This document shows positions 1,221 through 61,541 of a stretch of DNA of 64,000 nucleotides, in pieces. The translations under genes were made by a program, and so were the position numbers. This stretch comes from a virus (taxonomy: Duplodnaviria; Caudoviricetes). The DNA lies in IMG/VR virus record IMGVR_UViG_3300048436_000037, positions 1,619 to 65,618 of that record. One strand, 5' to 3'. The notes under the pieces are model-generated. The model saw nothing but the letters and a program-made list of their open reading frames with translations. It did no database searches and was not told the DNA's origin. Each line of letters starts with the position of its first letter. The first letter of the stretch is position 1.

Positions 1221-1461
1221 GTTTTTCTGGTATTAAAATGTTATCACCGTGTTTAAAATCCCAAGTAGATACTCTGTAAAAATCAATGTCAGCCCATACA
1301 TATAACGAGCTAACGTCACATATTTTTAGATCACTGTAAAACGTAGTACTATTTAGAGTTGCTATAATTGACTTAACAGACGAGCTGTAACGTTTTTCTT
1401 GTGAAGCCAATGCTTCTTTGATTTCAGGCTTTAGCCTTTCATAAATTGTTAATCTTGCCAT
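1210..1461 (-). CDS. hypothetical protein
   Basis: 83-aa ORF overlapping the downstream start, operon packing. Confidence 0.7.
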   Translation of the reverse strand: MARLTIYERLKPEIKEALASQEKRYSSSVKSIIATLNSTTFYSDLKICDVSSLYVWADIDFYRVSTWDFKHGDNILIPEKHEQ

Positions 1462-1466
1462 TTTAT

Positions 1467-1805
1467 TTAGTTTTTAATTGGTTTATATTCAGTAGTTGCA
1501 TAGTACTCACTTTCAACTTCATTTTCAAATTCCATTAGTAATTTCGCAAATGCACCATCACCATATAGTTTAACATATAGTTCTTCGAAGCCATCTGTTT
1601 TTACTCCTTTACCGTTTATTACAAATCTTTCAGAAATCTCTGTAATATCGTGGTCATACGCAGGTTTACCATCTTCACCTTCATTGATAATTTCTGATAC
1701 AACACTCCAACAGTCGGCATGTATAGAAAAGAATCCCATGTCTTTGCTAAATTCTGTGTAGACACTACGATCTACATTTACTTGATTTTTAATTACTTTA
1801 CTCAT
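1467..1805 (-). CDS. hypothetical acidic protein
   Basis: 112-aa ORF with AT-rich leader. Confidence 0.7.
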   Translation of the reverse strand: MSKVIKNQVNVDRSVYTEFSKDMGFFSIHADCWSVVSEIINEGEDGKPAYDHDITEISERFVINGKGVKTDGFEELYVKLYGDGAFAKLLMEFENEVESEYYATTEYKPIKN

Positions 1806-1825
1806 AATATTTAATTTTAAATTAG

Positions 1826-1899
1826 GTGCGCAGGGAGGATTCGAACCTCCGACCTCGAGTTTATGAGACTCGCGAGCTAACCAGCTGCTCTACCGCGCA
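1826..1899 (-). tRNA. tRNA with CAT anticodon (Met; Ile2 not excluded)
   Basis: Minus strand TGCGCGG TA GAGC AGCTGGTTA GCTC G CGAGT CTCATAA ACTCG AGGTC GGAGG TTCGAAT CCTCC CTGCGCA C; full cloverleaf; A11:U24 initiator-like but no GGG/CCC anticodon stem; no encoded CCA. Confidence 0.9.
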
Positions 1900-1901
1900 A
1901 T

Positions 1902-1929
1902 AGTGGACGTGGCGGGAATCGAACCCGCG
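1902..1929 (-). pseudogene. orphan tRNA/tmRNA 3' end (T-arm plus acceptor strand), truncated at the cassette array
   Basis: Minus strand C GCGGG TTCGATT CCCGC CACGTCC A CT; no matching 5' acceptor strand found upstream. Confidence 0.6.
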
Positions 1930-1964
1930 ATAAATTGCATTAAAACGCATTTTATCTTAGTGTT
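1922..1964. repeat. attC-like site 0 (compact)
   Basis: AAC ccg CGATAAATTGCATT aa AACGCATTTTATCT tagt GTT; its AAC is the complement of the GTT of the orphan T-arm. Confidence 0.6.
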
Positions 1965-1972
1965 GTAGTGCA

Positions 1973-2233
1973 TTACCTTTTTTCTTTAAGCCATCTTTTG
2001 TATGCGTTTTCTATCTTGGTTCGTTCCATTCCAGAGTACCATTCTATAAAATCAAAAGGTAACGTTCCCTCACTTTCGTTCGGCACAACAACACTATGTA
2101 TAAGTAATTGCTTTCTAACCTTATCTAAATTGGCTCGTGCTTCTGTTACATCAGTACCTTCTTGTCCGTGAAAGTAATCTTCCCAATGTGCTAAAGTATC
2201 ATCTACTTTTTCTAAATAATCTAATGTTGTCAT
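1973..2233 (-). CDS. cassette 1 hypothetical protein
   Basis: 86 aa; LLIHSVVVP is encoded by the arm of attC-like site A. Confidence 0.7.
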   Translation of the reverse strand: MTTLDYLEKVDDTLAHWEDYFHGQEGTDVTEARANLDKVRKQLLIHSVVVPNESEGTLPFDFIEWYSGMERTKIENAYKRWLKEKR

Positions 2234-2286
2234 AATCTATTTTGTTTAATTCTTAATCCCCGCAACTACTCATACATTTTAACGTT
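2090..2286. repeat. attC-like site A
   Basis: AAC act ATGTAT AAGTAATTGC (2090-2111) ... GCAACTACTC ATACAT tttaac GTT (2262-2286). Confidence 0.8.
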
Positions 2287-2294
2287 AGGTGCAA

Positions 2295-2585
2295 TTAGTA
2301 CGCACCATTACTAAACCAATATTTCGTTTCACAATCTTCGCAACAATGAACTTCTTCCCAATCCCAATAGCTACCATCCATAGTAGAACCTTTGCTTTCA
2401 TTGAAACATTTAGGGTATTGCTCGTTGTTCACTTCATATTGTTCGTCATTATCATTATGCCATTTACCGCAATTCGGGCATTTGTAATCTTTAACCTTAA
2501 CTGCACCTAACAATGTATATAAATCATTGCATTTAGGCATTGGTGTAGTTCCGTTCATTTTGTGTTCTAAATCTGTTAAATCCAT
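2295..2585 (-). CDS. cassette 2 zinc-ribbon protein
   Basis: 96 aa with CPNCG...CEDC; CNDLYTLLGA is encoded by the arm of site B. Confidence 0.7.
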   Translation of the reverse strand: MDLTDLEHKMNGTTPMPKCNDLYTLLGAVKVKDYKCPNCGKWHNDNDEQYEVNNEQYPKCFNESKGSTMDGSYWDWEEVHCCEDCETKYWFSNGAY

Positions 2586-2634
2586 AGTTCGTGTTTATTT
2601 ATTGGTAATGCAACGCTTCATATACTCGTCCGTT
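2509..2634. repeat. attC-like site B
   Basis: AAC aat GTATAT AAATCATTGCATT (2509-2533) ... AATGCAACGCTTC ATATAC tcgtcc GTT (2607-2634). Confidence 0.8.
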
Positions 2635-2658
2635 GGCACACATTAAAACGATGATGCC

Positions 2659-2947
2659 AACAACGTGTATAAAAAATAAATTTATTCAAGTTCTTTATCC
2701 GTTATTGCTTTGTACACGCTCTTTAAGTCTGCCATATCTTTAAGGGTTTTAATATAATACAAACCACCATCAACTTCACAGAAATGGCATAAATCCCATC
2801 TACCTTTAAATCTATTGCTTTTTATTATACTAAATTCCAATCTATCGCAATAACTACCATCGGTTTCTTTTCCGAATGTTTGCAGTTTATCTAAGTCTTT
2901 CTCTGTTATCATATCCATAAATTTACATTTTCATACACTTTTAAGTT
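2659..2947. repeat. attC-like site C (entire ORF inside the loop)
   Basis: AAC aac GTGTAT AAAAAATAAATTTA (2659-2684) ... TAAATTTACATTTTC ATACAC ttttaa GTT (2918-2947). Confidence 0.8.
2682..2918 (-). CDS. cassette 3 hypothetical protein
   Basis: 78-aa ORF exactly filling the loop of site C. Confidence 0.7.
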   Translation of the reverse strand: MDMITEKDLDKLQTFGKETDGSYCDRLEFSIIKSNRFKGRWDLCHFCEVDGGLYYIKTLKDMADLKSVYKAITDKELE

Positions 2948-3200
2948 AGCCACAATTATTAGCTAAAAAATCATTTACATCGCTTTCGTCTAATATATCT
3001 TGGCTATCTACCATACATTGGTTTACTTCTTCATTGTAAGCTAATAACAGTTCACGTTGTTGGCTAACATTGTGTATATTTAATGCCTTACTTATCATTT
3101 CCATTGCCATAGTCTGTGATATGGTGGTGTTTAACCAATTATGTTTGTACTTATCACAAACGTCATTGTATATTTGTTTTTGTTGTTCAGTATATTCCAT
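2946..3200 (-). CDS. cassette 4 hypothetical protein
   Basis: 84 aa; ALNIHNVSQQ is encoded by the arm of site D; stop TAA lies in the GTTAGCC core. Confidence 0.7.
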   Translation of the reverse strand: MEYTEQQKQIYNDVCDKYKHNWLNTTISQTMAMEMISKALNIHNVSQQRELLLAYNEEVNQCMVDSQDILDESDVNDFLANNCG

Positions 3201-3252
3201 TTTTATTAATTTTAGTTATTATTCATCGGCACTAATCATACACTTTTAAGTT
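3066..3252. repeat. attC-like site D
   Basis: AAC att GTGTAT ATTTAATGCC (3066-3087) ... GGCACTAATC ATACAC ttttaa GTT (3228-3252). Confidence 0.8.
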
Positions 3253-3421
3253 ATAAGCCATTAAAAGTGATGGTTGCACAATTAAATAGCAAGTGGTAAA
3301 ACGCCCAGCACATTGAAGCTGCAAGAAGTATACTACCCACACTGTAATTCTCTTTTTTTGTAAGCGGTGTAAGAGTTCTTATCACAGCCAATGCAAATAC
3401 AATAATCATTAATTCGTTCAT
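3251..3421 (-). CDS. cassette 5 small membrane protein (56 aa, absent from ORF track)
   Basis: MNELMIIVFALAVIRTLTPLTKKENYSVGSILLAASMCWAFYHLLFNCATITFNGL*; two hydrophobic stretches; stop in the GTTATAA core. Confidence 0.65.
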   Translation of the reverse strand: MNELMIIVFALAVIRTLTPLTKKENYSVGSILLAASMCWAFYHLLFNCATITFNGL

Positions 3422-3444
3422 TTTTCTAATATTAAACGGCTTAT

Positions 3445-3531
3445 AACAAGGGCTAAAATTAATAGCTCTGTCAAGCCAATTACTTAATTGATTAGTTCAT
3501 TACTTAGGCTACTAATCTTAGCCAAACCGTT
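3445..3531. repeat. attC-like site E
   Basis: AAC aag GGCTAA AATTAATAGC (3445-3466) ... GCTACTAATC TTAGCC aaacc GTT (3508-3531). Confidence 0.8.
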
Positions 3532-3573
3532 AAAAATAACCACCTTCTTGCAATCTAATCCAAGCCGGGTTTA

Positions 3574-3674
3574 GTAACTAGTGAGGATTCGAACCTCATA
3601 CCCGTCGGTAGCCATAGTCATTATAGGCTCGTGAAAACGTTTACCTACTTCAGTACTAAACCTGACCTAGTTGC
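3574..3674 (-). ncRNA. tRNA-like element (canonical T-arm and acceptor, aberrant body)
   Basis: Minus strand GCAACTAG...TGAGG TTCGAAT CCTCA CTAGTTAC; internal TCAG/CTGA and GTAGGT/GCCTAT stems; about 100 nt. Confidence 0.5.
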
Positions 3675-3689
3675 CGGCTATTGTGTGAT

Positions 3690-3920
3690 CACTAATCGTA
3701 TCTTTCGCCATCGGTTTTCGTATTTTCTTGAGAGCTATATACCGTAAAACTCTAGTTAGCTATTCGCTTATGTTGTAACTGCACGTCATTTACCGGTGTG
3801 TACCCTGACTTATGTTACACTAATTAAGCTACTCGTCTAGCAATAAACACATTAGAGGATCTTCGTTAGCTTAACTACTTAAAATACCGTAGCCGTACTA
3901 AGCCCTCCACCGTGTTTAAT
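3690..3920 (-). ncRNA. putative structured non-coding RNA region
   Basis: No ORF in track; minus-strand stems AAACAC/GTGTTT, TGGAGG/CCTCTA, GCTTAG/TTAAGC, TAGCT/AGCTA, TGTAAC/GTTACA, GTCA/TGAC. Confidence 0.35.
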
Positions 3921-3922
3921 TT

Positions 3923-4408
3923 TTATACTTTTTTATACTCTATACCGTTGATTACTATGTAATCTTCGTTTACTTTTGTAACATACTCCCAAGTTGGTCT
4001 TGGTTCTATGTCTGTATTTTTTAATAAATACTCTTTTAGAAATACAAGTCTAGTTAACTCGTTGGTAATCAATACTCTTTTGACACCTGCATCATACTTA
4101 TTTACTTTTGTTTTACCATTTTCGTCGATAGTTACCCAATATACTGGAGCTTTTCGCTGTGGATTTAGTTGATAGCAAGACATCTCACCGAACCTAGTGC
4201 GTATTATTCTACGCACCATACCTGATTTATAAGAAGCAAACTTAGATACATCACCATTGCTTGCTGTTACCTCGAACATAGTTGTACCGTTTTTTAATTG
4301 GGTAGGTGTTGTTACTTCTTTAACTGCTGGATATTCTCTTAAGAATATTGCTTTGTAATCGTCTACTAATCTTTGTTGCTGTTGTTGATATTGTTCTGCG
4401 TAAGTCAT
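3923..4408 (-). CDS. hypothetical protein
   Basis: ORF track 3923..4438; MTYAEQ start at 4408 abuts the upstream stop. Confidence 0.7.
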   Translation of the reverse strand: MTYAEQYQQQQQRLVDDYKAIFLREYPAVKEVTTPTQLKNGTTMFEVTASNGDVSKFASYKSGMVRRIIRTRFGEMSCYQLNPQRKAPVYWVTIDENGKTKVNKYDAGVKRVLITNELTRLVFLKEYLLKNTDIEPRPTWEYVTKVNEDYIVINGIEYKKV

Positions 4409-4409
4409 A

Positions 4410-4598
4410 TTATCTTCGTCTTTGTGATTTATGTACAAGCGCGCTTAGCTCTTGGCTTACTATTTGAATTGTGTTACCTGTTTTGTGGTAAGTAATTGGA
4501 ACATAAGAATGTTTTTTTACTTCAGAACAAGGAGGACATGTTTTATATCCTAAGTTTAATCGATAAGGGTGGACTTCGTCGCCGCATTTACAGTACAT
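4410..4598 (-). CDS. DksA/TraR-like C4 zinc-finger protein
   Basis: MYCKCGDEVHPYRLNLGYKTCPPC resembles the CxxCG..I...RL......C..C pattern. Confidence 0.55.
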   Translation of the reverse strand: MYCKCGDEVHPYRLNLGYKTCPPCSEVKKHSYVPITYHKTGNTIQIVSQELSALVHKSQRRR

Positions 4599-7270: not shown

Positions 7271-7498
7271 CTATTTTTCTAGTACTTCTCGAGCGATCAC
7301 TGGTACACTAGTTGAAGAAGTGTAAGACTTGTACTTGATGAAGCAAGCCATATTTTCTAGTTTAGACTTCATTACTTCATACACTTTATCGTGATTATAA
7401 GTAACTGTTTTACCATTTTTGAAGTTGACAGTGATTAGTTGGTTTTTACCAATTAGTGATTTTCTGATTACAAATCTTTTTGAAATTAAAGTTGACAT
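7271..7498 (-). CDS. early protein, paralogue A
   Basis: 75 aa, highly similar to 7821..8051 (SKRFV.RKSLIGKNQ...KYKSYTSSTS.PVI). Confidence 0.8.
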   Translation of the reverse strand: MSTLISKRFVIRKSLIGKNQLITVNFKNGKTVTYNHDKVYEVMKSKLENMACFIKYKSYTSSTSVPVIAREVLEK

Positions 7499-7820: not shown

Positions 7821-8051
7821 TTACTCAGTGATTATTAATTCACGAGTAATAACTGGCATCGATGTGCTACTTGTATATGATTTATACTTCGCCCAACAGT
7901 TCATTGTTTCTAACTTTGGTTTCATTACTTCATACACATCATCGTGATTATACTTAGCGACTTTACCATTTTTGAATGTTACTTCAATGATTTGATTCTT
8001 TCCGATTAATGATTTGCGAACAACAAATCTTTTTGATTTTAATACTGACAT
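7821..8051 (-). CDS. early protein, paralogue B
   Basis: 76 aa, paralogue of 7271..7498. Confidence 0.8.
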   Translation of the reverse strand: MSVLKSKRFVVRKSLIGKNQIIEVTFKNGKVAKYNHDDVYEVMKPKLETMNCWAKYKSYTSSTSMPVITRELIITE

Positions 8052-11866: not shown

Positions 11867-13420
11867 ATGGATGCAATAGTTAAGAATCTAAACTTCGGAG
11901 AGAAGGCTAGAAAAAATGTCTATGAAGGTATAGACAAGTTGACTAAAGCCGTTAGTTCTACACTAGGAGCTAGCGGTAAATGTGTGATGCTAGAAGATCA
12001 TACAGGTAGACCCATTATAACAAAGGATGGTGTTACTGTAGCAGAGTCAGTTATATTAAGAGATCCAGTTGAAAATATGGGAGCTACACTTTTAAAGGAG
12101 GCAGCTCGTAAAACCGTAAAAGAAGCTGGAGATGGAACTACAACTGCCACTGTGCTAGCTCACGCTATATTAACAGAAGCTTACAAAGTATTAGACAAGA
12201 CAAATACAAGAAGCTTAAAAGAAGGTATTGATAAATCTGTAGAATCTGTTGTAGAGTATTTAAAAGAAAACTCTGTACAAGTTACAGATGACATGTTAGA
12301 TCAAGTAGCTACAATATCTACCAATAACGACCCTGAACTTGGTAAAATAATTGGTGATGCTTTCAGGCTTGTTGATTTGACGGGTGTAGTAGTAATGGAA
12401 CCTACCGAGGATAATGAAACTTCTGTAGAACTAGTTGAAGGTGTTGAGTACGACAAAGGACTTGTTAACTCTCATTTTGTCACTAGTAAAACTAAAAGAG
12501 CAGCAGAGCTTGAAAACGCATTGGTATTAATAGTAGAATCACCAGTTGAGTCTATAAGAAAAATACAAAGTGTTTTAGAGTATGTTATAAAGAATAATAA
12601 ATCTTTATTGATAATAGCTGATTGTGAGCAGAGTGTTATTTCTGCTTTAGCTATGAATAAAGTTAAAGGTAATATAAAAGTAAATGTTATCAACGCGCCT
12701 ACATATGGTGTTAGTAAAAAAGATACTTTAAACGACCTAGCCCTTCTTACAGGCGCTACGGTGATAAATGAGGATCTTGGAGATGATATGGACCTTATAC
12801 AACCAGAATATCTAGGAAGTTGCTTAAAAAGCATTACAACAGATCTAGAGACTATAATACAGGTTGAGGACAATAATCCTAATGTAGAAAAGTTAATTCA
12901 AGATCTTAGAGATCAAATAGAAAATACAAAGAATCCTAACGAGGTAATAAGATTAGAAAGACGACTTGGTCGTATATCTGCAAAAGTTGCTATTGTTAAA
13001 GTTGGGGCAAATTCTGAAATAGAATTAAAAGAAAAACAAGATAGAGTTGAAGACGCTATCTGTGCTACTAAAGCCGCAATCAAGGAAGGTATTGTTTCAG
13101 GTGGTGGTATTGCACTTCTAAATGCCTCGAGTAAAATAAAGGCAAAAACAACTGGGGAAAAAGTTTTATTAAAAGCTATTAGAGCACCTTTTAAAACAAT
13201 ACTTAGTAATGCTGGTATAGAGAAGTACGATACTCCTAGCGTTGAAGGTGAAGGATTAAATGTGGTTACAGGAAATATGGTAAATATGATAGACTCAGGT
13301 ATTATCGATCCTTTACTAGTAACTAAAAGCGCTTTAAGAAACGCGGCTTCTGTAGCATCAACAATAATATCTACTGATTGTGTAATTAATAACTTGAGGA
13401 TTGATGATAGCAATAGGTAG
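11867..13420 (+). CDS. groEL: phage-encoded chaperonin GroEL
   Basis: [34 protein letters not shown] motifs; no GGM tail. Confidence 0.97.
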
Positions 13421-42218: not shown

Positions 42219-45200
42219 ATGTATACTTACGAAGGTGTTTCATATACTATAAATCAAATACAAGAAGCTGCAAAAAAGTCTAACATGTCTGTTGATGATT
42301 ATGTTAAAAAAATAAAAGCAGATACTAAAACAGAACCTACAAAAGAGGTAGAAAGTGCAGGCTTACTTGATTCAACAACTTTTCAAACGGACGCTGCAAC
42401 GGGTGCAGGTGTGGTGTCTCAACCAATGACAGCATCACAAGCGGGATATGTAGAAGTAGGAGATACGGGATCACCTTTGGAAGATACTTCCTCGGAATTA
42501 CAAGATCCTGATCCAGACAAACCTTTATCTGCTAGCGAGAAAAGAATAGCAACTAGAAAAAAAAGAGAACAAGAAAAGCAGGATAGATTAAAAGCTGAAG
42601 CAATTTCAGCTGAAAATGTAATAAACGATAGAATAAAAAATATACCAAAAGAAGATATAATAGCTATTCAAGCTAGTGATTATTTTGGACCTATAAAAGG
42701 TAGAAATGATAGAACAACTGTAAGTAGAACGATGATTGGTCAAATGGGTCCAACCGTGTCATTTGAACCTACTTTTAAGTCAGATGAAGGTTATACTAAA
42801 TATTTAAAGCAAACTCTAGGTAACAAATATAATCAATATTTAGATTATAAAGAAACAAACGAAATAATACCTCTTAACGCTAACAATGAATCTCAGTTAA
42901 AAAATATATACAACGAAGCTGAAACAAAAGCTAAAGATAAGGTATACAACAATAGTTTATTTAATGTTCCAGAGAATGTTCAGGAGTACATGGTGGCTAG
43001 TCCAAAATTTGCTAGTGGAGCAGAAAGCATAGAGGCTCAAAAGTTTTTAGTTAAAGGTCAAGAAGAAACTTTAAGAAAAAACATTGAAAGCTACGAAAAA
43101 GCTAAAAAAGAATGGGAGTCTCAAGCTTTACCACTTAATCAAGAGGTTAAAAATCTTAAGACTCAAATAGATAGATTTAAGTTTTATACCGCTGGTGCAA
43201 GTCAAGAACAAGCAGACCAATACAATGAGTTGATACAGACCTATAACGCTAAAATACAGCAGTGGGAAGAAAAAGGCTTCAATGAATTACCTGCTTTTTT
43301 GAACTCACAATACAAACTAGTAAATTCACAGCAAAAGGATTATTCTAAAATGCGTGAAGACTCTAGGAGAGCTTTAATAGACTATGATTTATTTGAAAAA
43401 AATCTAAAACAAGATTATAGTGCAAGCGCTAGAGTTGGTAGGGTTTTTGATGAGTTTTTTGTACAGTCTGGTAGAAACTTTATAGACTTATATGCTGAGT
43501 TATACTTGAAAGGAGCTAGAAAAATAGGTGAATTTTATAAACCTCTCTCCTTCTTAACAAGTCCAGAAAACTCTGCAAAAGTAGATTCTTTAATAGAGAC
43601 AATACAGAAAAATAATAAAAACTACAATTTAGGTATGGCTTCTAAAAGAGAAAACATACCTACATCTCCATCTATAGATGATATAGGTAAAGATGGTTTG
43701 TCTATATGGGACTGGACATCTATAGCTCTTCAAGATAATTCAGCAACAATAGCCACCACATTTATACCTACAGGCGCTGCAATTAAGGGGGCGGCTGGTA
43801 TATCTAAGGCTGTTAAAGCTAGTAAGGGAATGAAAGAAGCTTTACAAAAACAAAAAGCTTTGTGGTTAGCTGGTAAAAGAACTGTTCAAGGAACTTTCTT
43901 TGTAGCTGAAACAGGTGGTAAATATGGAGAACTGCAAACAGACGAAGCGTCTAGAGAACAAGAAATAAAGTTTTTATACTCAAAACTGAATAATACTGAG
44001 GACATAAATGAAAAAACTGAAATATACAATAAGATTAATGAGCTTGAAGAGGTAGAAAACTATAGTTTACTTCAAAAAGCCTTTACATCTTATAGTGCTG
44101 GAGCTACAGCTACATTTCTCGAGAGTATAAGTACTTTGAAAATGCTAGAACCGGCTAAAGGTTTATCTAAACAAATAGGTATCAATGCAGCTAAAAAAGA
44201 ATTATACAAACAACCTGTTAGATTTAGTGCTAACTTACTAGGTAAGACTGCAGCAGGTTTAAAATCTTTACCAAAAAACCTTACTGGAGAAGTACTGGAA
44301 GAGGTAACTACAGAAGTATCTCATAATGCTTTAGATATATTAGTGTTAGGTGAAAACAAATCTATGTTTGAAGGAATTAATAAAGACTTTCTAGCAAGTA
44401 CAGCTATGAGTAGTTTTGGTATAATGGCACCTAGATCAGCTGGAAATATATTTAACATCGTAAAAAGTGAATTTAGAACTAAAAACGAAATATTCAAAAA
44501 CCAAGAGCTATCTAGAGAGCTTATAGATCTTAATGAGTCAACAACACCAGAAAACTCAAAACAACTTAGAGTTAGAAAAAAAGAAATATTAAAAGAGCTG
44601 GCCCTTAGCGATGCTATTAGTTTGCATAAGTTAAGATACATGACATCAGACCAAATAGAAGAGGTTGCTGATATTAACAGGCAAATTAGGCAAGTTAATA
44701 GTAAATTTACACAACTAGGTGGTTTAGGTGATTTAGGTGAAGCTGAAAACAAACGTGTTAAGAAACAACTAGAAAAAGAGTACTTTAACTTAACTACTGC
44801 TAGGCAAGAAATTCTAGATGCCAAACAAAGATCTAACACTAAGAAAGCTGCAAATATAAACAAAGCTTTAGGTAATGCTGCTAGAAACTCTGAAGCAGCT
44901 TTTTATTATGGTGTAAATAACTTTTACAATGATTTAACTATGACTCAAATGGGTGATGGTGAATTTGTTTCTATAAAAGGTGAAATTCAAGATGATGGTA
45001 AAATAAAATATGATGACTTAGATAATCAACTAGCCAAGTATAAAAATAAAAACATTAAAAATGAAGAAGGTGAAAGTGTTGATGCTTTTGAGTATTTAAA
45101 AACAAAAATAGAGCAAGGGGATTTTAACGCTACTACTATTGGAAAAGATATAATAGTAAACCAACCCATAATAGATAGAAATATAGCTATAGCACCTACT

Positions 45201-48200
45201 GATACAAGCGCTCAATACGCTGCTGTTGCACCGCTAGAGGAATTATTTCACTTGAGTATAAGTGAAAAAGGTATAAAGTTTGACTCTACTGCTAAAAACG
45301 CTGTCTTAGAGGCTGAAAAAGTATTAAAAGAAAAAAGAGATCTTGGAGTTATATCTGAGAAAGATTATAACGGTTTAAAAGAAAGATTTGATCTTTATAG
45401 AGATGGTAAGGATTTTGACGCTGAAGAATTTATAGCTCAAATGAATAATGCCATATCTCTAGGTGCTATAAACAGATCAGATCTAGAATCAACACCTTCT
45501 TTTAAAAAGTTTTTAAATAACGCTATTAGATCTACATTTGGTGATATGTCTTGGATGCTTAGCTTAGAAACATCTGACGATGTTTTTAATCTTGTTAAAA
45601 ATTTTCAGACAGACGTATCTAAAGGTGTTACTTTTCAAGCGCCTGAGACGGATGAGTTAAAAGAGTCTAGAGTTTTGTCGCCAAAAGCTGAATTTCTAAG
45701 AGATGAATTAACTAATGAAGAGCTAGTTGCATCTATTAAATCAAAAGCCACCGAGGATACCTTCTCTGTAGCTCAAGCTATTGTAGAAAAAAACTTTGGG
45801 CTTATAAGAGACTCTAATGTTTTAACTTTTGATAAAAGTAATCCAGCTCAAATAAATGCTGTTAAAGAAATACTAGAAGAGCAGATCTTAGGTGTTTTTG
45901 AGGGATCTGGTAGAGGAAAGTATTCAGCTAGAAGAACAGGGTTATTTAACGCTTATGAATCAACGAAGGAGGATGGCGCTAGTCCAAGTACGTACTTGCT
46001 TGGCGTTATAAAGACAAGAAAACCAGAAATAGATATAGCTTTAAAAGAGAGAACTATAAAATCAGAAGGCGATAGTATAGATTCCGATCAAGCAAAACAA
46101 GTTGTAGATAAATCCACTAAGACTAGTGCTACTGTAGACAAGTTAGCTAAAAAACCTACAGAAACAACTAAATTTAAATCTAACTATATATCTCCAGAGT
46201 TTAAAGAATCTTTAGATACTAGCAAAAGTGAAAAAGAAGCTATTGAAGACAAGATATCTAGCACTGTAAAAGAATCTTTCAAGGATAGAAAGGTTAGTAG
46301 GTTTAAAGAGACGGGTAAGATACCTCAAAAATTAGCTCAACTTTATGCTGATATGTTTGGTATAAAAACAACTTCTGCTCTTATAGAGAAACAAAGAAAC
46401 CTTCAGAAGCTAGATCAAGAAGGAGCTGTTAGAGCTAGACAGTTTTTAATAGATAATGCAGCTTCAGATTTTGCTAGATTACCTAGAAGTAAAGATGACA
46501 CTGGTAAAGCTACTGGAATATTACAGACCAAAATAGGTAAAGTTTTATATAATAAAGCAGGTGAATTAATCGGTAGCTTAAAAACATATACAGATATAAT
46601 TAAAGGTAAAAATATTACACTAGAAGGTTATGATGGTAAGCAGTATGAGTTTAATCAACTTGACAGTGAAGGCAATAAAAAACCAATATATAGAGATGCG
46701 CAACATATAAAAGCAGCTTTAGATTTTCATATAAGAAATAGAGCCTTAGAGACTTTAATACCTGAACAGGGTAAAAGAATACAAGCTGGTGCTAAATTTA
46801 GTAAAGCACAGTTATTAAATGTTACGCAGTCTAGAAATATCAACCAAGTTTTAAAATTGTTAGGTATAGACAGTGCTAGTGTACCGGACAATATGAGGGC
46901 TGAAATACAAGCATCTTTCGAAAACGCAATAAGAGAATATAAACTTACTGAAAATGTTTTTTTAGCAGGAGCATTTGCTTTTAGTGGGGCAAAATATAAA
47001 AGAAAGGCTAACGGTAATGTTTACTACGAATTAACTAATGGAGAAGAGATGATGGGAATACCTAGGACTGACTCCGAAGGTAATGTTAAGGTTAATAAAA
47101 ATAATAAAAAACTTTTCAATCAACCAACAGCGGAGCAAGTTGAAGCTAAATTTGGAAAAGGAGTTAAGCTTTTAGCTGGAAGAGGTAGGTTGTACTACGG
47201 AGTTACTGATCCAGCATATAAAAAAGCTTTATCTGAGGCTAGAAAAAACTCAGAAGGCAAACAGGAGAATAAGGCTAAAAGAGTAAACGTTAACGCTGTT
47301 AATACTGATAAAGGTGTAGCTCAAGCCAAAATAAATATGGAAGTGCTTGATGATGTTGTAAGACAACTAGATAAAGCCGTAAAAAGCGGTATGCCAAAAG
47401 AATTAGCAGCAATGGTAATAGCTCAAGGGTATCAAGCGACTACTGGTCTTATTAAAATAGCAGCGCCATTTAGATATTTTTCTAAAAACCAACAATACGG
47501 TACTTCAGCAAAACAAAAAACAGGCGATAAGTTTAGAGAAGAGCATAATCCTCCAGCATCAGTAGTTGGTGCTTCAATTATCTATGGTTTAGTAACTAAC
47601 AATACTAATAAGATAATGGCTGATGTTAAGAAAAACTACTATCAAACAAAACTTTCTAAACTCGATGATCAAAAGCTAGATGAAGCTAAGTTAGACGCAA
47701 CCTTGCCGGTGGGTACAACTATAGCAGATAATCCAGCTATTAGATTTATTGAGGCTGGTATAGATCTTAATAGTATTGTTAACTATGAGACCGGTGAGAC
47801 AATGGCTGAAGAGCTTGGTGTGTCTTTAAGTTCTAGTGATATAAATTTAGATAATATAGCTGAGCAGAATAAAGTACTAAAAGACTTGATATTGGATAAA
47901 GGAGAGTATAAAAACCCTCAGAATTATTTAAATAACTTTGTTAAACTATCTTCTAAAACAAGAGCCTCTAAGATAAATAATAATAAAACACCATTAAATG
48001 TAAAGTTTTCTAAAAATGTAACAAACCAAGAAGCTTTAGATAATTTAGGTAATATAGATAAAGCATTGTCTATAGCTAGAAATGCTGATGCTCCAGTTAA
48101 AAAGATTAGGGTATTTGACTTTGATGATACACTTGCTACAACCAAAAGTAATGTATTATACACAATGCCTGATGGCAAAACTGGATCTCTAACCGCTACT

Positions 48201-50636
48201 GAGTTTGCTAAAAGAGCTGGTGAAATGGAGGCACAAGGTGCTGAGTGGGATTTTTCAGAGTTTAGTAAAGTTATGAAAGGTGCTAAAGGACCTTTACTTG
48301 ATGTTGCTAAATTTATAAATGATGCGAAAGGCGAGAGAGATGTATTTGTTTTAACAGCTAGACCAGCTGATGCCGCTGGCCCTATAAAAGAGTTTTTAGA
48401 CAGCATGGGTTTAAATATTCCATTAGAGAACATAACAGGTCTAGGTGATGGTACAGCTCAAGCAAAAGCTAGGTGGATGGTAGATAAAGCTGCTGAGGGT
48501 TATAATGATTTTTACTTTGCTGATGATGCTAGTAAAAATGTTAAAGCCGTTAAAGACGCTCTAAGTGTCTTAGATGTTAAATCTAAAGTGCAACAAGCTT
48601 ACGTTAAATTTAGTAAAGCTAGTAAACTAAGTAAAGACTTCAATGATATAATAGAAAGTGCTACTGGTATTGCTTCTGAAAAAATATATGGTAGTGCTAA
48701 AGCTCAAGTGGCTGGAGCTAGCAGAGGTAAAGTATTTAGAGGTATAGCTTATTCTGCTCAAGACTTTGTAGGTTTACTATATGAAACGTTAGGTAAAGGT
48801 AAAGTTGGTGATTCTCAAATGGCTTGGTATAAACAGAATTTACTAGATCCTTATGCTAGAGCTATGAACGATTTATCTTCAGCAAGACTTGCTATGATGA
48901 ACGATTATAGAGCATTGAAAAAGCAATTAGGTATTGTGCCTAAAAATCTACGTAAAAAAATACCTGGAGAACCTTGGACTAGAGAGCAAGCTGTTAGAGT
49001 TTATGTTTGGAATAAACAAGGAACTGAAGTACCTGGTATAAGTAAAAACGATTTAAGAGATTTAACTAAATATGTAGCCAAAGACGCTGAGCTACAGGTA
49101 TTTGCAGATCAATTAATAGCTATACAAAAAGGTGATATGTATGCAGAACCTGGAAAAAGCTGGGTATCTGGTAGTATATCCACTGATATGTTAAGAGGTT
49201 TAAACACTATAAAAAGAGCTAAATACCTAGAGCAATGGCAAGCAAATGTCGATGCTATATTCAGTAAAGAAAATAAAAATAAACTAGAGGCTGCTTATGG
49301 TATAAAGTATGTTAAAGCTTTAGAAAACAGTTTAGAGCGTATGAAGACCGGTAGAAATAGATCTTTCTCTGACGATAGTTTAACAGGTAGATTCACTGAT
49401 TGGCTACAAGGTAGTGTCGGTGCTATAATGTTCTTTAACACTAGATCTGCTGTACTTCAAACTTTATCTGCTGTCAACTTTGTTAACTTTACCGATAATA
49501 ATCCTTACGCTGCAGCTAAAGCTTTTGCTAATCAAAAACAGTATTGGAAAGACTTTACAACATTAATGAACTCAGACTTCTTAAAAGAGCGTAGATCTGG
49601 TTTACGTATGAATGTGAATGAAGCTGATATAGCAGATATGGCTAAACAAGAAGGACCAAGAGGTGTTATAAACAAACTATTACAATTAGGTTTTGCACCT
49701 ACTCAAATAGCAGATAGTTTTGCTATAGCATCTGGAGGAGCTACCTTTTATAGAAATAGAATAAAGACCTATACTAAACAAGGTTTAGATCAGGCTCAAG
49801 CAGAGGAGAAAGCTTTTCAAGATTTTAGAGAGAATGCTGAAGAGTCTCAACAGTCTTCTAGACCAGATAAGATATCAGCGCAACAAGCTGGACCATTAGG
49901 TAGATTAATATTAGCGTTTGCTAATACACCTGCTCAGTATGCTAGACTTACTGATAAAGCAATACGTGATCTTAAAAATGGTAGAGGTGATGCTAAGACT
50001 AATATAAGTAAAATAATATACTACACTACAGTTCAAAATATTATATTTAATGCTGTTCAACAGGCTTTATTTGCTATGGCATTTGGTGATGAAGAACCTG
50101 AAGACGAAAAGAAACAAAAAAAGTATATTGGTATTGCCAATGGTATGGCTGACTCATTACTAAGAGGCACAGGTATTGCGGGATCTGTTATATCTGTAGG
50201 TAAAAATGCTGTTATAAGAATAATCAACGAGTCTGAAAAGAAAAGGCCTAAGTATGAAAAAGTTGGATATGAGCTAACTAAAATATCTCCACCTGTATCA
50301 GCTAAGTTATCTCGTATAAATCAAGCTGCTAGAGCTTACGAGTGGAATAAAGAAGAGATGATTACAAAAGGTTTTAGCTTAGATAATCCAGCATTTTTAG
50401 CTGGTGGTAATGTAGTATCTGCTCTTACAAATATACCTTTAGATAGGGTTGTGAAAAAAGTAAACAACGTAACTAAAGCAACAGAAAGTGATATGGAGCT
50501 GTGGGAAAGAGTAGCATTGTTTGCTGGTTGGCAAGACTGGGAATTAGGTATAAAAGATGAAAGTAAAAGCATAAAAAAGAAAAAAACTAAAAGTAAGAAA
50601 AAACGATCCGGAGGAATAACATTTGATGAATTTTAA
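42219..50636 (+). CDS. giant internal virion/polyvalent protein with HAD-like domain
   Basis: 2805 aa; VFDFDDTL...VLTAR...K...YFADD HAD motifs at about 48100-48560. Confidence 0.75.
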   Translation: MYTYEGVSYTINQIQEAAKKSNMSVDDYVKKIKADTKTEPTKEVESAGLLDSTTFQTDAATGAGVVSQPMTASQAGYVEVGDTGSPLEDTSSELQDPDPDKPLSASEKRIATRKKREQEKQDRLKAEAISAENVINDRIKNIPKEDIIAIQASDYFGPIKGRNDRTTVSRTMIGQMGPTVSFEPTFKSDEGYTKYLKQTLGNKYNQYLDYKETNEIIPLNANNESQLKNIYNEAETKAKDKVYNNSLFNVPENVQEYMVASPKFASGAESIEAQKFLVKGQEETLRKNIESYEKAKKEWESQALPLNQEVKNLKTQIDRFKFYTAGASQEQADQYNELIQTYNAKIQQWEEKGFNELPAFLNSQYKLVNSQQKDYSKMREDSRRALIDYDLFEKNLKQDYSASARVGRVFDEFFVQSGRNFIDLYAELYLKGARKIGEFYKPLSFLTSPENSAKVDSLIETIQKNNKNYNLGMASKRENIPTSPSIDDIGKDGLSIWDWTSIALQDNSATIATTFIPTGAAIKGAAGISKAVKASKGMKEALQKQKALWLAGKRTVQGTFFVAETGGKYGELQTDEASREQEIKFLYSKLNNTEDINEKTEIYNKINELEEVENYSLLQKAFTSYSAGATATFLESISTLKMLEPAKGLSKQIGINAAKKELYKQPVRFSANLLGKTAAGLKSLPKNLTGEVLEEVTTEVSHNALDILVLGENKSMFEGINKDFLASTAMSSFGIMAPRSAGNIFNIVKSEFRTKNEIFKNQELSRELIDLNESTTPENSKQLRVRKKEILKELALSDAISLHKLRYMTSDQIEEVADINRQIRQVNSKFTQLGGLGDLGEAENKRVKKQLEKEYFNLTTARQEILDAKQRSNTKKAANINKALGNAARNSEAAFYYGVNNFYNDLTMTQMGDGEFVSIKGEIQDDGKIKYDDLDNQLAKYKNKNIKNEEGESVDAFEYLKTKIEQGDFNATTIGKDIIVNQPIIDRNIAIAPTDTSAQYAAVAPLEELFHLSISEKGIKFDSTAKNAVLEAEKVLKEKRDLGVISEKDYNGLKERFDLYRDGKDFDAEEFIAQMNNAISLGAINRSDLESTPSFKKFLNNAIRSTFGDMSWMLSLETSDDVFNLVKNFQTDVSKGVTFQAPETDELKESRVLSPKAEFLRDELTNEELVASIKSKATEDTFSVAQAIVEKNFGLIRDSNVLTFDKSNPAQINAVKEILEEQILGVFEGSGRGKYSARRTGLFNAYESTKEDGASPSTYLLGVIKTRKPEIDIALKERTIKSEGDSIDSDQAKQVVDKSTKTSATVDKLAKKPTETTKFKSNYISPEFKESLDTSKSEKEAIEDKISSTVKESFKDRKVSRFKETGKIPQKLAQLYADMFGIKTTSALIEKQRNLQKLDQEGAVRARQFLIDNAASDFARLPRSKDDTGKATGILQTKIGKVLYNKAGELIGSLKTYTDIIKGKNITLEGYDGKQYEFNQLDSEGNKKPIYRDAQHIKAALDFHIRNRALETLIPEQGKRIQAGAKFSKAQLLNVTQSRNINQVLKLLGIDSASVPDNMRAEIQASFENAIREYKLTENVFLAGAFAFSGAKYKRKANGNVYYELTNGEEMMGIPRTDSEGNVKVNKNNKKLFNQPTAEQVEAKFGKGVKLLAGRGRLYYGVTDPAYKKALSEARKNSEGKQENKAKRVNVNAVNTDKGVAQAKINMEVLDDVVRQLDKAVKSGMPKELAAMVIAQGYQATTGLIKIAAPFRYFSKNQQYGTSAKQKTGDKFREEHNPPASVVGASIIYGLVTNNTNKIMADVKKNYYQTKLSKLDDQKLDEAKLDATLPVGTTIADNPAIRFIEAGIDLNSIVNYETGETMAEELGVSLSSSDINLDNIAEQNKVLKDLILDKGEYKNPQNYLNNFVKLSSKTRASKINNNKTPLNVKFSKNVTNQEALDNLGNIDKALSIARNADAPVKKIRVFDFDDTLATTKSNVLYTMPDGKTGSLTATEFAKRAGEMEAQGAEWDFSEFSKVMKGAKGPLLDVAKFINDAKGERDVFVLTARPADAAGPIKEFLDSMGLNIPLENITGLGDGTAQAKARWMVDKAAEGYNDFYFADDASKNVKAVKDALSVLDVKSKVQQAYVKFSKASKLSKDFNDIIESATGIASEKIYGSAKAQVAGASRGKVFRGIAYSAQDFVGLLYETLGKGKVGDSQMAWYKQNLLDPYARAMNDLSSARLAMMNDYRALKKQLGIVPKNLRKKIPGEPWTREQAVRVYVWNKQGTEVPGISKNDLRDLTKYVAKDAELQVFADQLIAIQKGDMYAEPGKSWVSGSISTDMLRGLNTIKRAKYLEQWQANVDAIFSKENKNKLEAAYGIKYVKALENSLERMKTGRNRSFSDDSLTGRFTDWLQGSVGAIMFFNTRSAVLQTLSAVNFVNFTDNNPYAAAKAFANQKQYWKDFTTLMNSDFLKERRSGLRMNVNEADIADMAKQEGPRGVINKLLQLGFAPTQIADSFAIASGGATFYRNRIKTYTKQGLDQAQAEEKAFQDFRENAEESQQSSRPDKISAQQAGPLGRLILAFANTPAQYARLTDKAIRDLKNGRGDAKTNISKIIYYTTVQNIIFNAVQQALFAMAFGDEEPEDEKKQKKYIGIANGMADSLLRGTGIAGSVISVGKNAVIRIINESEKKRPKYEKVGYELTKISPPVSAKLSRINQAARAYEWNKEEMITKGFSLDNPAFLAGGNVVSALTNIPLDRVVKKVNNVTKATESDMELWERVALFAGWQDWELGIKDESKSIKKKKTKSKKKRSGGITFDEF

Positions 50637-60238: not shown

Positions 60239-60979
60239 CTATAAAGTCTTGTTAATAAAAAATTGTTGTGGATCGAAATCCGGTGTTTCGTAGAACAGTT
60301 TGTATTGTTCTACAGCTCTTTGTACTTTATCTAGACCACTTTCATAAAAAGCATCAGAACAATCAAATATACCTATCTGATGTGTGTTCTTGTCTATAGC
60401 TATAAACACTAGGTCATAGCCAAATAGTCTTCGATAAATGTACGCTTGACTGTCGTAGTTGTAGCGGAAAGCTGAGCTTCTAAATTTTGATATATCACTT
60501 GTTGTTTTTAGATCAATAACTAATCTCTCATCGTGATTTACTATATCTGCTTTACCTTTCCACCACATCCCTTCAATCTCTTTAATTCCAGGTTGCTCGT
60601 ATTCAACATTGATACCATTGATAAGATCCATACATACTTTATTCTGCTTCATCGTATCGACTAGTAACTCTGTTTTATCTACTTCGTGTTGTAATAAACA
60701 CATTTCACCGCCTGAAATCTCCTTATAAGCCTTTGTATTCCTTGTCGTAGATTCTATTATTTTAAAATTCTTTAGTTTATCTGGCTCTAATATAGCCGTG
60801 TGAAAATAACCACCAACTAAAAAATTAATATTAGTACCTTGACTTTTGTTAAGGGCTAAAGGGTTTTTTAACAATGTAGATATATCAGAATTGCTTCTAA
60901 ACTGCTGGCCAAACTCTCCATAGTAATGCTCGTCAATTTTAAGCTTTTCTAATATATCTTTTTTTGTTAAATCATTCAT
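60239..60979 (-). CDS. RecE/Exonuclease VIII-like PD-(D/E)xK nuclease
   Basis: G..FHTAILEP, KGKAD, IDLKTT, Y..QAYIY. Confidence 0.85.
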   Translation of the reverse strand: MNDLTKKDILEKLKIDEHYYGEFGQQFRSNSDISTLLKNPLALNKSQGTNINFLVGGYFHTAILEPDKLKNFKIIESTTRNTKAYKEISGGEMCLLQHEVDKTELLVDTMKQNKVCMDLINGINVEYEQPGIKEIEGMWWKGKADIVNHDERLVIDLKTTSDISKFRSSAFRYNYDSQAYIYRRLFGYDLVFIAIDKNTHQIGIFDCSDAFYESGLDKVQRAVEQYKLFYETPDFDPQQFFINKTL

Positions 60980-60980
60980 A

Positions 60981-61541
60981 TTATAAGGTTGTTAATTTAG
61001 TTTCTATCTCTTTGGAGATATTGTATTTAGCTTTTATAGCTGATAACTTACCTCCTTTTTTAATAAACTCCACTGCTTTTGAATAAGCTGGATCTTTTTC
61101 TGAGGTTAATGTGTTTTTAACTACTTGAGCTACCGGTGCTTTACCGTGTGTGTTAGTAGCATCGCTGTCTGCTGTATCATCAATTAGAAATAAATTTCCA
61201 AGAGCATACTTTTTTGCATACGAAGATGCACTACCAAATTGCTGAGGTACATTCATACCTTTTTGGTTTAAGTCTATACCAACAACAGATGTTGCGTGTA
61301 TAGCATTATCGCCATCACTAATGATAGCTGTTGATTTCAACAAAGGTAACATATCAGTATGGATATATTCCTCATTAATTCTTACACTAACTCCTAACTC
61401 TAATAGAAAGGGTTTTATTGCTTCTAGAATGTCTTCGGCTGATCTGAAGTTGTATTTGCCGAATGAATTAAATCTACTTTTTTTCGATTTAAATCTTGTC
61501 TGGACAGACGCCAGTTTGTCGTTTAAGGTATTTAATTTCAT
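60981..61541 (-). CDS. ERF-family single-strand annealing protein
   Basis: NSFGKYNFRSAEDI, Q.FGSASSYAKKYAL..LF.I.D..D.D. Confidence 0.9.
   Translation of the reverse strand: MKLNTLNDKLASVQTRFKSKKSRFNSFGKYNFRSAEDILEAIKPFLLELGVSVRINEEYIHTDMLPLLKSTAIISDGDNAIHATSVVGIDLNQKGMNVPQQFGSASSYAKKYALGNLFLIDDTADSDATNTHGKAPVAQVVKNTLTSEKDPAYSKAVEFIKKGGKLSAIKAKYNISKEIETKLTTL

Follow-up and report, generated by a model that had tools for sequence, protein, structure and literature searches.

Translated hairpin stems and the exchange of half-gene modules among small genes of a marine Flavobacteriaceae phage

A block of small open reading frames (ORFs) was analysed in a 64,000-nucleotide stretch of phage DNA (here called the window), which corresponds to bases 1619-65618 of a 65,618-base IMG/VR virus record with a CheckV completeness of 100%. 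The source phage is a marine Flavobacteriaceae phage. The results support the view that small early genes are assembled from exchangeable half-gene modules, with N- and C-terminal halves reshuffled between phages at a linker peptide. Strands of hairpin stems are translated, the hairpins covary, their core is invariant, and modules are exchanged at the stem bases. The region is a string of alternating hairpins in which every module, half-gene or whole gene, lies in a loop. As to how the modules move, we favour, with a probability of roughly 0.55, swapping of exchangeable hairpin modules by short-homology or template-switch recombination at the arms.

Five GTT...AAC inverted-repeat sites were found on the coding (minus) strand of window positions 1958-3447, and at three of them the 5' arm lies inside an ORF. 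On the coding strand the sites follow the plan (T)ATACAY-N2-3-GTTRnnnn ... nnnnYAAC-N5-7-TGTATGA. The original prediction held that three ORFs read through a site arm, and all three peptides were found where it had placed them: QLLIHSVVVP in ORF A, CNDLYTLLGAV in ORF B and ALNIHNVSQQ in ORF D. The core GTT is read as Val in the same frame in A and D and in another frame in B, likewise as predicted. Arms of these sites pair at 3061-3068/2945-2952 (D), 2502-2511/2284-2293 (B) and 2083-2096/1958-1971 (A), and the stop codons of the three ORFs fall within or directly before the 3' arms.

When the downstream 260 nucleotides (nt) were subjected to dinucleotide shuffling, an equally good complement arose in 8 (D), 1 (B), 2 (A) and 2 (E) of 5000 shuffles, which rules out a chance origin of the arm pairs. 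Generic GTT..AAC repeats of at least 7 base pairs (bp) occur in the window at chance level (82 seen vs 62 ± 11 in shuffles). As inverted repeats as such are common, the case for the sites rests on context and relatives: the five sites are real by motif context and by their relatives, not by complementarity alone. The motif ATACAY-N1-4-GTTR is present in the 64 kb five times on the minus strand, with four copies within 1.2 kb at the block, and once on the plus strand. The 3' box CATACAYTTTWA occurs exactly at 2271, 2932 and 3237 only.

Relatives of protein D were sought by scanning IMG/VR with degenerate peptide patterns, which yielded eight loci. One of them (L011) encodes a full-length relative of D, and another (L012) resembles D over residues 3-42 only and diverges at the motif. 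In the other six (L013-L018) the N-termini are unrelated to D, and the common part consists of ...[LI]HNVSQQRELL... plus, in part, the C-half only. The 24 nt GTTAGCCAACAACGTGAACTGTTA were identical, synonymous positions included, in nine of ten motif instances obtained with these patterns. The exact core 21-mer is present in 73 IMG/VR stretches and in four contigs of GTDB (from a Flavobacteriales metagenome-assembled genome (MAG), a Maribacter sp., a Flavobacteriaceae MAG and one 1-kb contig labelled Hyphomicrobiales). In addition, blastn located parts of the D-type core locus in two cultured phages, Cellulophaga phage phi13:2, where the core falls within the gene annotated as hypothetical gp029, and Olleya phage Harreka_1.

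All 81 instances of the 21-mer are read in the frame VSQQREL. They fall into 73 distinct contexts, 68 of them with complete ORFs, and in these 68 genes 59 N-half clusters and 48 C-half clusters are joined in 66 combinations. Fifteen of the 16 C-half clusters with at least two members are joined to at least two different N-half clusters. The window's own N-half was found with two C-halves, and its own C-half with two N-halves. Homology breakpoints at the arm peptide, which had been anticipated for all three proteins, were thus seen abundantly for D, while the A- and B-type arms each have only one unrelated carrier. The A-type arm recurs with a shorter bulge in an unrelated protein of locus L070 (...LFSVVVPKGTL...), and the exact A-type 20-mer is found in none of the IMG/VR stretches. 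The B-type 18-mer gave seven matches, namely two B homologues, one unrelated small ORF with a matching 3' arm (L101), and four that look like chance (two capsid-like ORFs, L099, L100).

The core is constrained as nucleic acid. In 862 kb of fetched loci, 91 canonical core sites were counted together with six one-mismatch variants; all six are non-synonymous, and no synonymous variant was present. All 68 complete genes have T at position -1 of the core. The C-halves next to it evolve as protein: the pooled proportions of synonymous (pS) and non-synonymous (pN) differences are 0.42 and 0.12, the ratio of the corresponding rates (dN/dS) is ~0.20, and pS ranges from 0.06 to ~1 by pair. It is this combination of a core free of synonymous variants with C-halves evolving as protein that places the constraint on the nucleic acid. 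The 3' arm of the core, TAATTGTGGCTAAC, lies at the stop codon and is kept in 57 of the 68 genes and decayed in about six more; relative to the stop it takes several registers (31 as NCG*, 14 and 7 behind the stop). As translation runs from the 3' strand of one stem across a spacer into the 5' strand of the following one, the sequence of the linker peptide is dictated by the nucleic acid. The proposal that LxIHxV is a pseudo-motif imposed by DNA structure is borne out by these counts.

The same data bear on a simpler explanation, in which VSQQRELL/LxIHxV marks a domain boundary as an ordinary conserved protein motif and identity at the DNA level stems from recent common ancestry. Such a motif would fit the single frame of all 81 instances, and the C-halves do have a loose common pattern (LLxAF...[FY]LxxNCG) under purifying selection. 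It is at odds with the complete lack of synonymous change at the core next to C-halves with pS values of 0.06-1.0, with single variants that all alter the peptide, with the three registers of the 3' partner and with the covariation of the stems (see below). A plain protein motif was rejected on the missing synonymous variants, and we regard this explanation as highly improbable.

In minimum-energy folds of most representatives a second helix lies inside the first. In the D-type element, helix 1 is formed by (T)GTTAGCCA and TGGCTAAC. The 5' side continues with an invariant bulge of 10 nt, ACAACGTGAA, and then with helix 2, where CTGTTA plus variable bases faces variable bases plus TAATTG; the 3' strand is continuous. 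Covariation was assessed in an alignment of 28 sequences, one per C-half cluster. Paired cells made up 97.3%, as compared with at most 48.5% when the partner was slid, and compensatory changes were seen in seven of the ten helix-2 pairs. Both sides had changed in 63 cells vs 18.0 ± 3.2 in shuffles, none of 500 shuffles being as high. On average 11.7 pairs form with a sequence's own partner and 7.0 with the partner of another cluster. Other arm types stay complementary as well (GTTAGCTAC/GTAGCTAAC, GTTAGCAAC/GTTGCTAAC and GTTAGGTGCA/TGCACCTAAC), and the A element is built on the same plan, with a helix 1 of 12 bp, a bulge with a small hairpin, and a helix 2 of GTTACCTTTT/AAAAGGTAA. DNA-fold z values were -3.38 for A (0 of 200 shuffles), -1.86 for D and -3.33 for S3, the third site on the coding strand. 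Pairing of the 16 nt ahead of the core with the 28 nt behind the 3' arm, as an outer stem spanning the C-hairpin, was tried and discarded, as it was not above permuted partners (z = +1.6, wrong direction).

The variable part of helix 2 comprises 320 positions, of which 299 are Watson-Crick pairs, two G.T, two A.C and 17 other mismatches, with no excess of sense-strand wobbles. The bulges hold C-GAA-G or C-GAAA-G units, which we take to be very stable DNA mini-hairpins of the d(GCGAAGC) type. With few wobbles and mini-hairpin bulges, we lean towards pairing at the DNA level, which is not proven.

It is conceivable, though rather doubtful, that the hairpins act in early transcripts as terminator, processing or stabilising elements and are kept for expression, with shuffling as a by-product of homologous recombination. 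The TGTATGA box that follows a hairpin, ~35 nt ahead of each start codon, would then be promoter-like. In support of this, the base of the hairpin falls on the stop codon, and 11-37 nt separate the box from the ATG that follows. In the A-type bulge, a hairpin with a GNRA loop and tandem G.A gives a weak match to the GA-cis model (20.8 bits vs a gathering score of 34.7), and the phage has a sigma-like gene, itself a weak assignment. The conserved box takes the form ...AAC-TTAAAA-GTGTATGA and comes with no clear -35/-10 pair and no T-run; one strand of the stem is inside a gene. G.U is usually tolerated in RNA helices, whereas only two G.U stand beside two A.C in the 320 variable-helix positions, and C-GAA-G triloops are typical of DNA rather than RNA. 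Further points against a role in RNA are that no T run follows the stems, that they match no Rfam family at threshold, and that they begin 115-230 nt upstream, in translated sequence. A close analogy in favour of the RNA role is offered by the terminator/promoter cassettes of promoter-early stem-loops (PeSLs) in T4-type phages, as described by Arbiol et al. 2010 (PMC2839356) and Comeau et al. 2014 (PMC4122927).

A second class of stem surrounds the N-terminal modules. The ATACA box pairs backwards across the N-module, not across the C-hairpin: in 34 of 57 cases a complement of at least 6 nt lies 2-12 nt after an AAC, 100-330 nt upstream, whereas 300 permutations of partners gave 13.7 on average and 21 at most. 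These stems covary too (GTGTAT/ATACAC, GGTTAA/TTAACC, GGCTAT/ATAGCC, GTGTAACAAT/ATTGTTACAC). Hairpins of both classes also occur around the sequence CGTTTTAATG, which is present in 96 copies in 932 kb (1.8 expected) as the invariant 10-nt loop of stems that differ and covary. 'Empty' GTT..AAC hairpins with this loop are represented by S3 in the window and by loci L052, L062, L056 and L080, the latter four with the bulge as well. Other hairpins with this loop read AAC-N5-TGTATnnn-loop-nnnATACA-NNT-GTT, so that the TGTAT box behind one AAC is paired with the ATACA box ahead of the next GTT. Three such loops in a row, on differing stems, were observed behind D-type elements (...AAC-ACTAAGATAAAAnCA-loop-...) at L020:5940-6020 and in L050, L062 and L068.

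Pairs of loci that carry the same C-half cluster with different N-halves have unrelated flanks on both sides in 15 of 15 cases, and their loops are 52-98% identical where loop lengths match. The window and locus L068 are 100% identical over 196 nt, from the base behind AAC (at 3250) to the core, and unrelated before it; in further pairs identity begins at, or a few bases behind, an AAC. The in-frame swap of N- and C-terminal halves that had been postulated hence stands as far as shuffling of halves is concerned. Site-specific, integron-like crossover is at most hypothetical; the defining traits of integrons that were examined are lacking (see below), and exchange occurs at both module ends and not only at the inner GTT.

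Parts of the block were also seen in natural populations. Fourteen DNA runs from 13 seawater or viral metagenome studies, one of which may be the source sample, contain 0.34-0.96 of the sampled words of 1900-3500. Contigs were compared for four runs from four studies, with pieces taken at 100% identity; stretches left without coverage do not imply that the DNA is missing. Pieces ending at arms cover 1961/1962-2286/2288, 2284-2634 (two runs) and 2945-3254, and a contig of 127 nt (2945-3070) is the D hairpin alone; ends at 2945/2948 were found in four runs. ORF C is spanned by pieces covering 2658/2659-2948 in two DNA runs (X8, X10) and 2665-2948 in RNA library X15, whose contigs over parts of 2665-3076 may be DNA carry-over. 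Among 16 loose ends listed in 1900-3500, 11 lie within 4 nt of an arm edge, three at the far end of TGTATGA and two at 1928. One contig joins 1964 to 2283, with gene A missing between two AACs (one side of 29 letters, flagged weak), and another joins 1461 to 3574, with the whole block missing (one side of <30 letters, flagged weak).

Several other kinds of element were considered. An inversion switch or shufflon was rejected, since it does not fit loop-to-loop matches that are in the same orientation in 35 of 35 cases and inverted in none; the inverted frame is open in only one of 57, and no PF00239 gene was found. A miniature inverted-repeat transposable element (MITE) or Rickettsia palindromic element (RPE) is contradicted by 48 C-half clusters between identical ends and by interiors with pS up to 1.0. 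Against an element of the IS200/IS605 type stand the lack of a PF01797 match and the fact that the two ends pair with each other and are not folded singly. With regard to a diversity-generating retroelement, which would show a template/variable repeat pair in one genome and a reverse transcriptase, the window's three arms inside ORFs are unlike one another and none of its C-halves was seen there a second time; reverse transcriptase was not specifically searched.

In the proposed scheme, the stems of the alternating hairpins divide the hyperplastic early region into exchangeable modules of two classes. The first, within a GTT...AAC stem, holds a C-terminal half, a whole tiny gene (ORF E) or the CGTTTTAATG loop alone (S3). 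The second lies within a TGTAT.../...ATACA stem that starts 5-7 nt past AAC and ends 3 nt ahead of the next GTT, and it contains either a whole gene (ORF C) or a leader together with the N-terminal half of the protein that follows. Proteins D, B and A are read from loop to loop, out through the 3' strand of one stem, over a 3-nt spacer and in along the 5' strand of the following stem, and this read-through appears as the LxIHxV-VSQQRELL peptide. Modules recur between unrelated flanks, and their boundaries lie between T and GTT and directly behind AAC. With pairing presumably acting at the DNA level, co-infecting phages could trade modules by annealing at short homologies or by template switching, in both cases at the invariant arms. 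The likely agent would be the phage's own Erf/exonuclease system, and the hairpins may mark or provoke the points of breakage and switching. This would amount to PeSL-like modular shuffling taken into reading frames.

Candidate catalysts of such short-homology exchange are encoded side by side on the minus strand, namely an ERF-family annealing protein (60981-61541) and the adjoining PDDEXK-like DUF3799 protein (60239-60979), the exonuclease of the Erf pair. The whole 65.6-kb record has no match to PF00589, the family of IntI-type tyrosine recombinases of integrons, which was matched in all control genomes, and none to serine recombinases (PF00239) or Y1 transposases (PF01797). Short-homology annealing or template switching is favoured because the Erf/exonuclease pair is present and these recombinases and transposases are not.

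A number of observations weigh against this preference. Match boundaries are enriched at arm junctions and not exclusive to them: a global control looked at where matches between loci with 93% identity or more end internally, and of 299 such ends only 25 coincide with the outer edge of a strict GTT..AAC repeat (random 3.9 ± 2.0), and 116 lie within 3 nt of any junction behind AAC or before GTT (random 78.8 ± 8.6, maximum 106). Several boundaries have only AAC and a loosely conserved leader box in common, which is thin for annealing, and the 14-nt 3' arm is short for Erf-type recombination. The three B homologues all align at full length across CNDLYTLLGAV, and one of B's homologues (L010, 67% identity) has an altered 5' arm and no 3' arm. 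The evidence from natural populations comes from contigs, and the joint lacking gene A has a 29-letter side, below the caution line. Finally, homology alone leaves unexplained the continued complementarity of the variable helix 2 and of the N-module stems as well as the invariant loop of empty sites; the hairpin must matter for some further role.

Because variable stems are kept complementary and the loop of empty sites is invariant, a structure-specific enzyme stays a serious rival. Hairpins would in that case fold in single-stranded DNA, and modules would be inserted and excised in the manner of integron cassettes by site-specific recombination. The cutter would be a putative tyrosine recombinase, HUH nuclease or junction resolvase of host or phage, acting at the stem base (between T and GTT, behind AAC) or in the CGTTTTAATG loop. 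Such an enzyme would account for razor-sharp GTT/AAC boundaries although neighbouring arms share just 3-4 nt, for a covarying stem of its own around every module, and for the many empty hairpins with their invariant loop, which have arm types and bulge in common with filled ones. Nearly absent wobble pairs and bulges that are GNA-type mini-hairpins of the DNA kind point the same way, as does, weakly, the joint with gene A missing between two AACs. The phage itself, however, yields no match to the three enzyme families named above, and the GTT/AAC order around the covarying stems is opposite to that of attC. C-modules are unlinked to the next N-module in 15 of 15 pairs, whereas integron cassettes cross over at one site, and no empty and filled alleles of one stem were found at one genomic place. 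We consider this route unlikely, if somewhat less so than a role of the hairpins in RNA. An 'intragenic integron' of lytic phages, in which CGTTTTAATG-loop hairpins are landing pads where a putative structure-specific enzyme inserts and excises coding modules, is an equally tentative idea; if true, genes would be built combinatorially from half-gene cassettes, and the folded recombination site would be translated as a linker.

The features of the block, all on the minus strand, are described here in coding direction. Site S1 opens with the 5' arm GTTATAAGCC (3438-3447), upstream of ORF E and complementary to 3250-3259. ORF E (3251-3421; 56 amino acids (aa), hydrophobic) lies as a whole gene inside the S1 hairpin loop. 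The S1 3' arm GGCTTATAAC (3250-3259) forms a module boundary behind ...AAC, and metagenome contig pieces end at 3253/3254. It is followed by a box GTGTATGA (3236-3243), the 5' strand of the stem around the leader and N-half of D, whose partner ATACAC is at 3072-3077. ORF D (2946-3200; 84 aa) reads ...KALNIHNVSQQRE... and consists of the N-half, the translated stem/spacer/stem (ALNIHNVSQQRELL) and the C-half. Its invariant D-type core T-GTTAGCCAACAACGTGAACTGTTA (3045-3069) comprises the 5' strand of helix 1 (3068-3061), the bulge and the start of helix 2. The 3' strand of the D hairpin (2945-2964) is made up of AGCTAATAATTG (helix 2) and then TGGCTAAC (helix 1), with the stop codon TAA inside (2946-2948).

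A second box GTGTATGA follows site S2 (2931-2938) and is the 5' strand of the stem around the whole gene C, with the partner ATACAC at 2665-2670. ORF C (2682-2918; 78 aa) thus lies entirely in the loop of a TGTAT/ATACA stem. Within it, at 2701-2854, an 8-bp GTTATTGC...GCAATAAC repeat was noticed, which lies outside the Val frame, ends 19 nt short of the stop and may be due to chance. S3 is the empty hairpin GTTGGCA-TCAT-CGTTTTAATG-TG-TGCCAAC (2632-2661), with a local pair 2655-2661/2632-2638. ORF B (2295-2585; 96 aa), whose C-half is zinc-ribbon-like, reads ...KCNDLYTLLGAVKV..., the 5' arm being translated as YTLLGAV. The 5' arm of site S4, GTTAGGTGCA (2502-2511), is inside ORF B, and the 3' arm TGCACCTAAC (2284-2293) lies right behind the stop of B and is a module boundary, with contig pieces and loose ends at 2282-2288.

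The box TGTATGA after S4 (2270-2276) is the 5' strand of the stem around the leader and N-half of A, with the partner TTATACA at 2097-2103. ORF A (1973-2233; 86 aa) reads ...KQLLIHSVVVPNE..., 5' arm and bulge together being IHSVVVPNESEGTL. The 5' half of the A-type element (2047-2096) is composed of the 5' arm TAGTGTTGTTGTGC (2096-2083), a small hairpin and linker CGAACGAAAGTGAGGGAAC (2082-2064) between arm and helix 2, and the 5' strand of helix 2, GTTACCTTTT... (2063-2047), at its end. Its 3' half (1958-1988) includes the 3' strand of helix 2, ...AAAAGGTAA (1988-1973), and the 3' arm GCACTACAACAC (1971-1960), where contig pieces start at 1961/1962. Behind this arm come a CGTTTTAATG-loop hairpin and a tRNA-like T-arm. 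These belong to a region (1901-1995, minus strand; L003:3095-3205) that was recognised as a second tRNA-like 3' half, with T-arm GCGGGTTCGATTCCCGC and acceptor strand, directly beside tRNA-Met. Its 'anticodon arm' is the CGTTTTAATG-loop hairpin, and it gave a weak match to the transfer-messenger RNA (tmRNA) model (19.5 bits vs a gathering score of 47).

The block is located in the first 8000 bases of the window, which hold small ORFs, every one on the minus strand, and a tRNA-Met at 1825-1899. Protein G (3923-4438) is common to the syntenic relatives at ~45% identity. In these, the genes for G and H (1210-1461) are nearly adjacent, with 340 nt between them in L002 and tRNA-Met between them in L004, and in none of the syntenic relatives L002-L007 were the arm motifs or the E-D-C-B-A-F block present. 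The near-adjacency of G and H identifies the block with ORFs E, D, C, B, A and F as extra DNA in a hyperplastic spot. A megablast search with 8 kb of the window against 50,697 phage records gave no match, and a peptide-pattern scan of IMG/VR gave no relatives of proteins F and A. In searches of Pfam and PHROGs, ORFs A-E were without a significant match, with the sole exception of D (phrog_30067, unknown function, E = 3.4e-05). Only tRNA-Met passed the threshold in Rfam.

Elsewhere the phage encodes ribonucleotide reductase, thymidylate synthase, a primase-helicase, a Cpn60/GroEL-type chaperonin (11867-13420, plus strand), the sigma-like protein mentioned above and, at 42219-50636 (plus strand), an ORF of 2805 aa. 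Two paralogous small ORFs of 75 and 76 aa (MS.L.SKRFV.RKSLIGKNQ...) are found at 7271-7498 and 7821-8051 (minus strand), with ~320 nt between them. A non-coding stretch of ~330 nt at 3570-3910 (minus strand) is kept in all syntenic relatives (L002:6485-6770, L003:2835-3095, L004:6485-6745). At its end lie a T-arm and an acceptor strand of tRNA-like form (GAGGTTCGAATCCTCACTAGTTAC); neither ARAGORN nor Rfam gives a match there. The middle of the stretch varies in modular fashion between phages, with one joint swapping 141 nt for 124 others, and positions 3662-3871 are the deepest part in one RNA-library run (61-81). The stretch is probably an expressed structured RNA of unknown kind.

Hyperplastic regions of phages are the main reservoir of genes of unknown function, and the turnover of their content is only partly understood. 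In the present case exchange operates below the level of the gene: two domain libraries, of which at least 59 N-halves and 48 C-halves have been sampled, are joined in frame at invariant structured DNA, and the hairpin core amounts to a natural domain-shuffling device. A strongly conserved 'protein motif' can thus be imposed by nucleic-acid structure, which bears on annotation and on motif-based family building. As the element is present in cultured phage-host pairs (Cellulophaga baltica/phi13:2 and Olleya/Harreka_1), the mechanism can be put to a direct test. Involvement of a structure-specific enzyme would mean a new recombination system and a possible tool.

Likeness to integrons is evident in tandem cassettes bounded by GTT/AAC triplets and in sites whose structure rather than sequence is conserved. 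In both systems imperfect hairpins have unpaired spacers and bulges of 60-140+ nt, and cassettes are flanked by complementary GTTRRRY...RYYYAAC. Integron recombinases recognise extrahelical bases of the folded single-stranded site; the phage sites have asymmetric spacers (3 nt vs 5-7 nt) and a 10-nt bulge. In attC the order is 5'-R''(RYYYAAC)...R'(GTTRRRY)-3', with R'' pairing with R'. The covarying stems of the phage run 5'-GTT...AAC-3', the reverse of R''...R', and its AAC...GTT interval is bracketed by the TGTAT/ATACA stem. A single crossover between G and TT, as in integrons, was not seen, both flanks being unrelated in every pair sharing a C-half. The phage system further differs in that no integrase is encoded, exchange takes place at both ends of each module, half-gene cassettes are read through the site, and the genomes are of lytic-type phages.

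Polymorphic toxins resemble the phage genes in that a short peptide, conserved at the DNA level too, marks the C-terminal exchange point (VENN in CdiA, PxxxxDPxGL in Rhs). The phage proteins, in contrast, are of ~90 aa, form no toxin/immunity pair and have equally variable N-halves, and their conserved stretch lies in a covarying hairpin. RPEs and in-frame MITE-like palindromes are likewise palindromic nucleic-acid elements in ORFs that are translated. RPE copies, however, are alike throughout, whereas here only ends and bulge are common and the interior is a diverse coding segment under purifying selection.

Like PeSLs, the phage sites are short conserved cassettes of a stem-loop and a promoter-like element, located in hyperplastic regions rich in small ORFs without known function, and they serve as exchange points between otherwise unrelated sequences; homologous recombination is invoked for both. 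A role as exchange point in a hyperplastic region was found here as well, as the block is absent in relatives and module exchange is seen. PeSLs are intergenic and whole genes are swapped in enterobacteria or vibrios as hosts, whereas in the Flavobacteriaceae phage the ORF includes one translated stem strand and the in-frame swap concerns half-genes. The phage also differs in having covarying stems around coding modules of 100-250 nt, two alternating stem classes and an invariant 10-nt loop in empty copies. A literature search, with supplements outside its scope, found 'SQQRELL' in no paper, the 10-mers only in unrelated primer lists, and no description of the system in print. The nearest described system is the PeSL; new here are sub-genic in-frame exchange, a translated site and a regular hairpin grammar.

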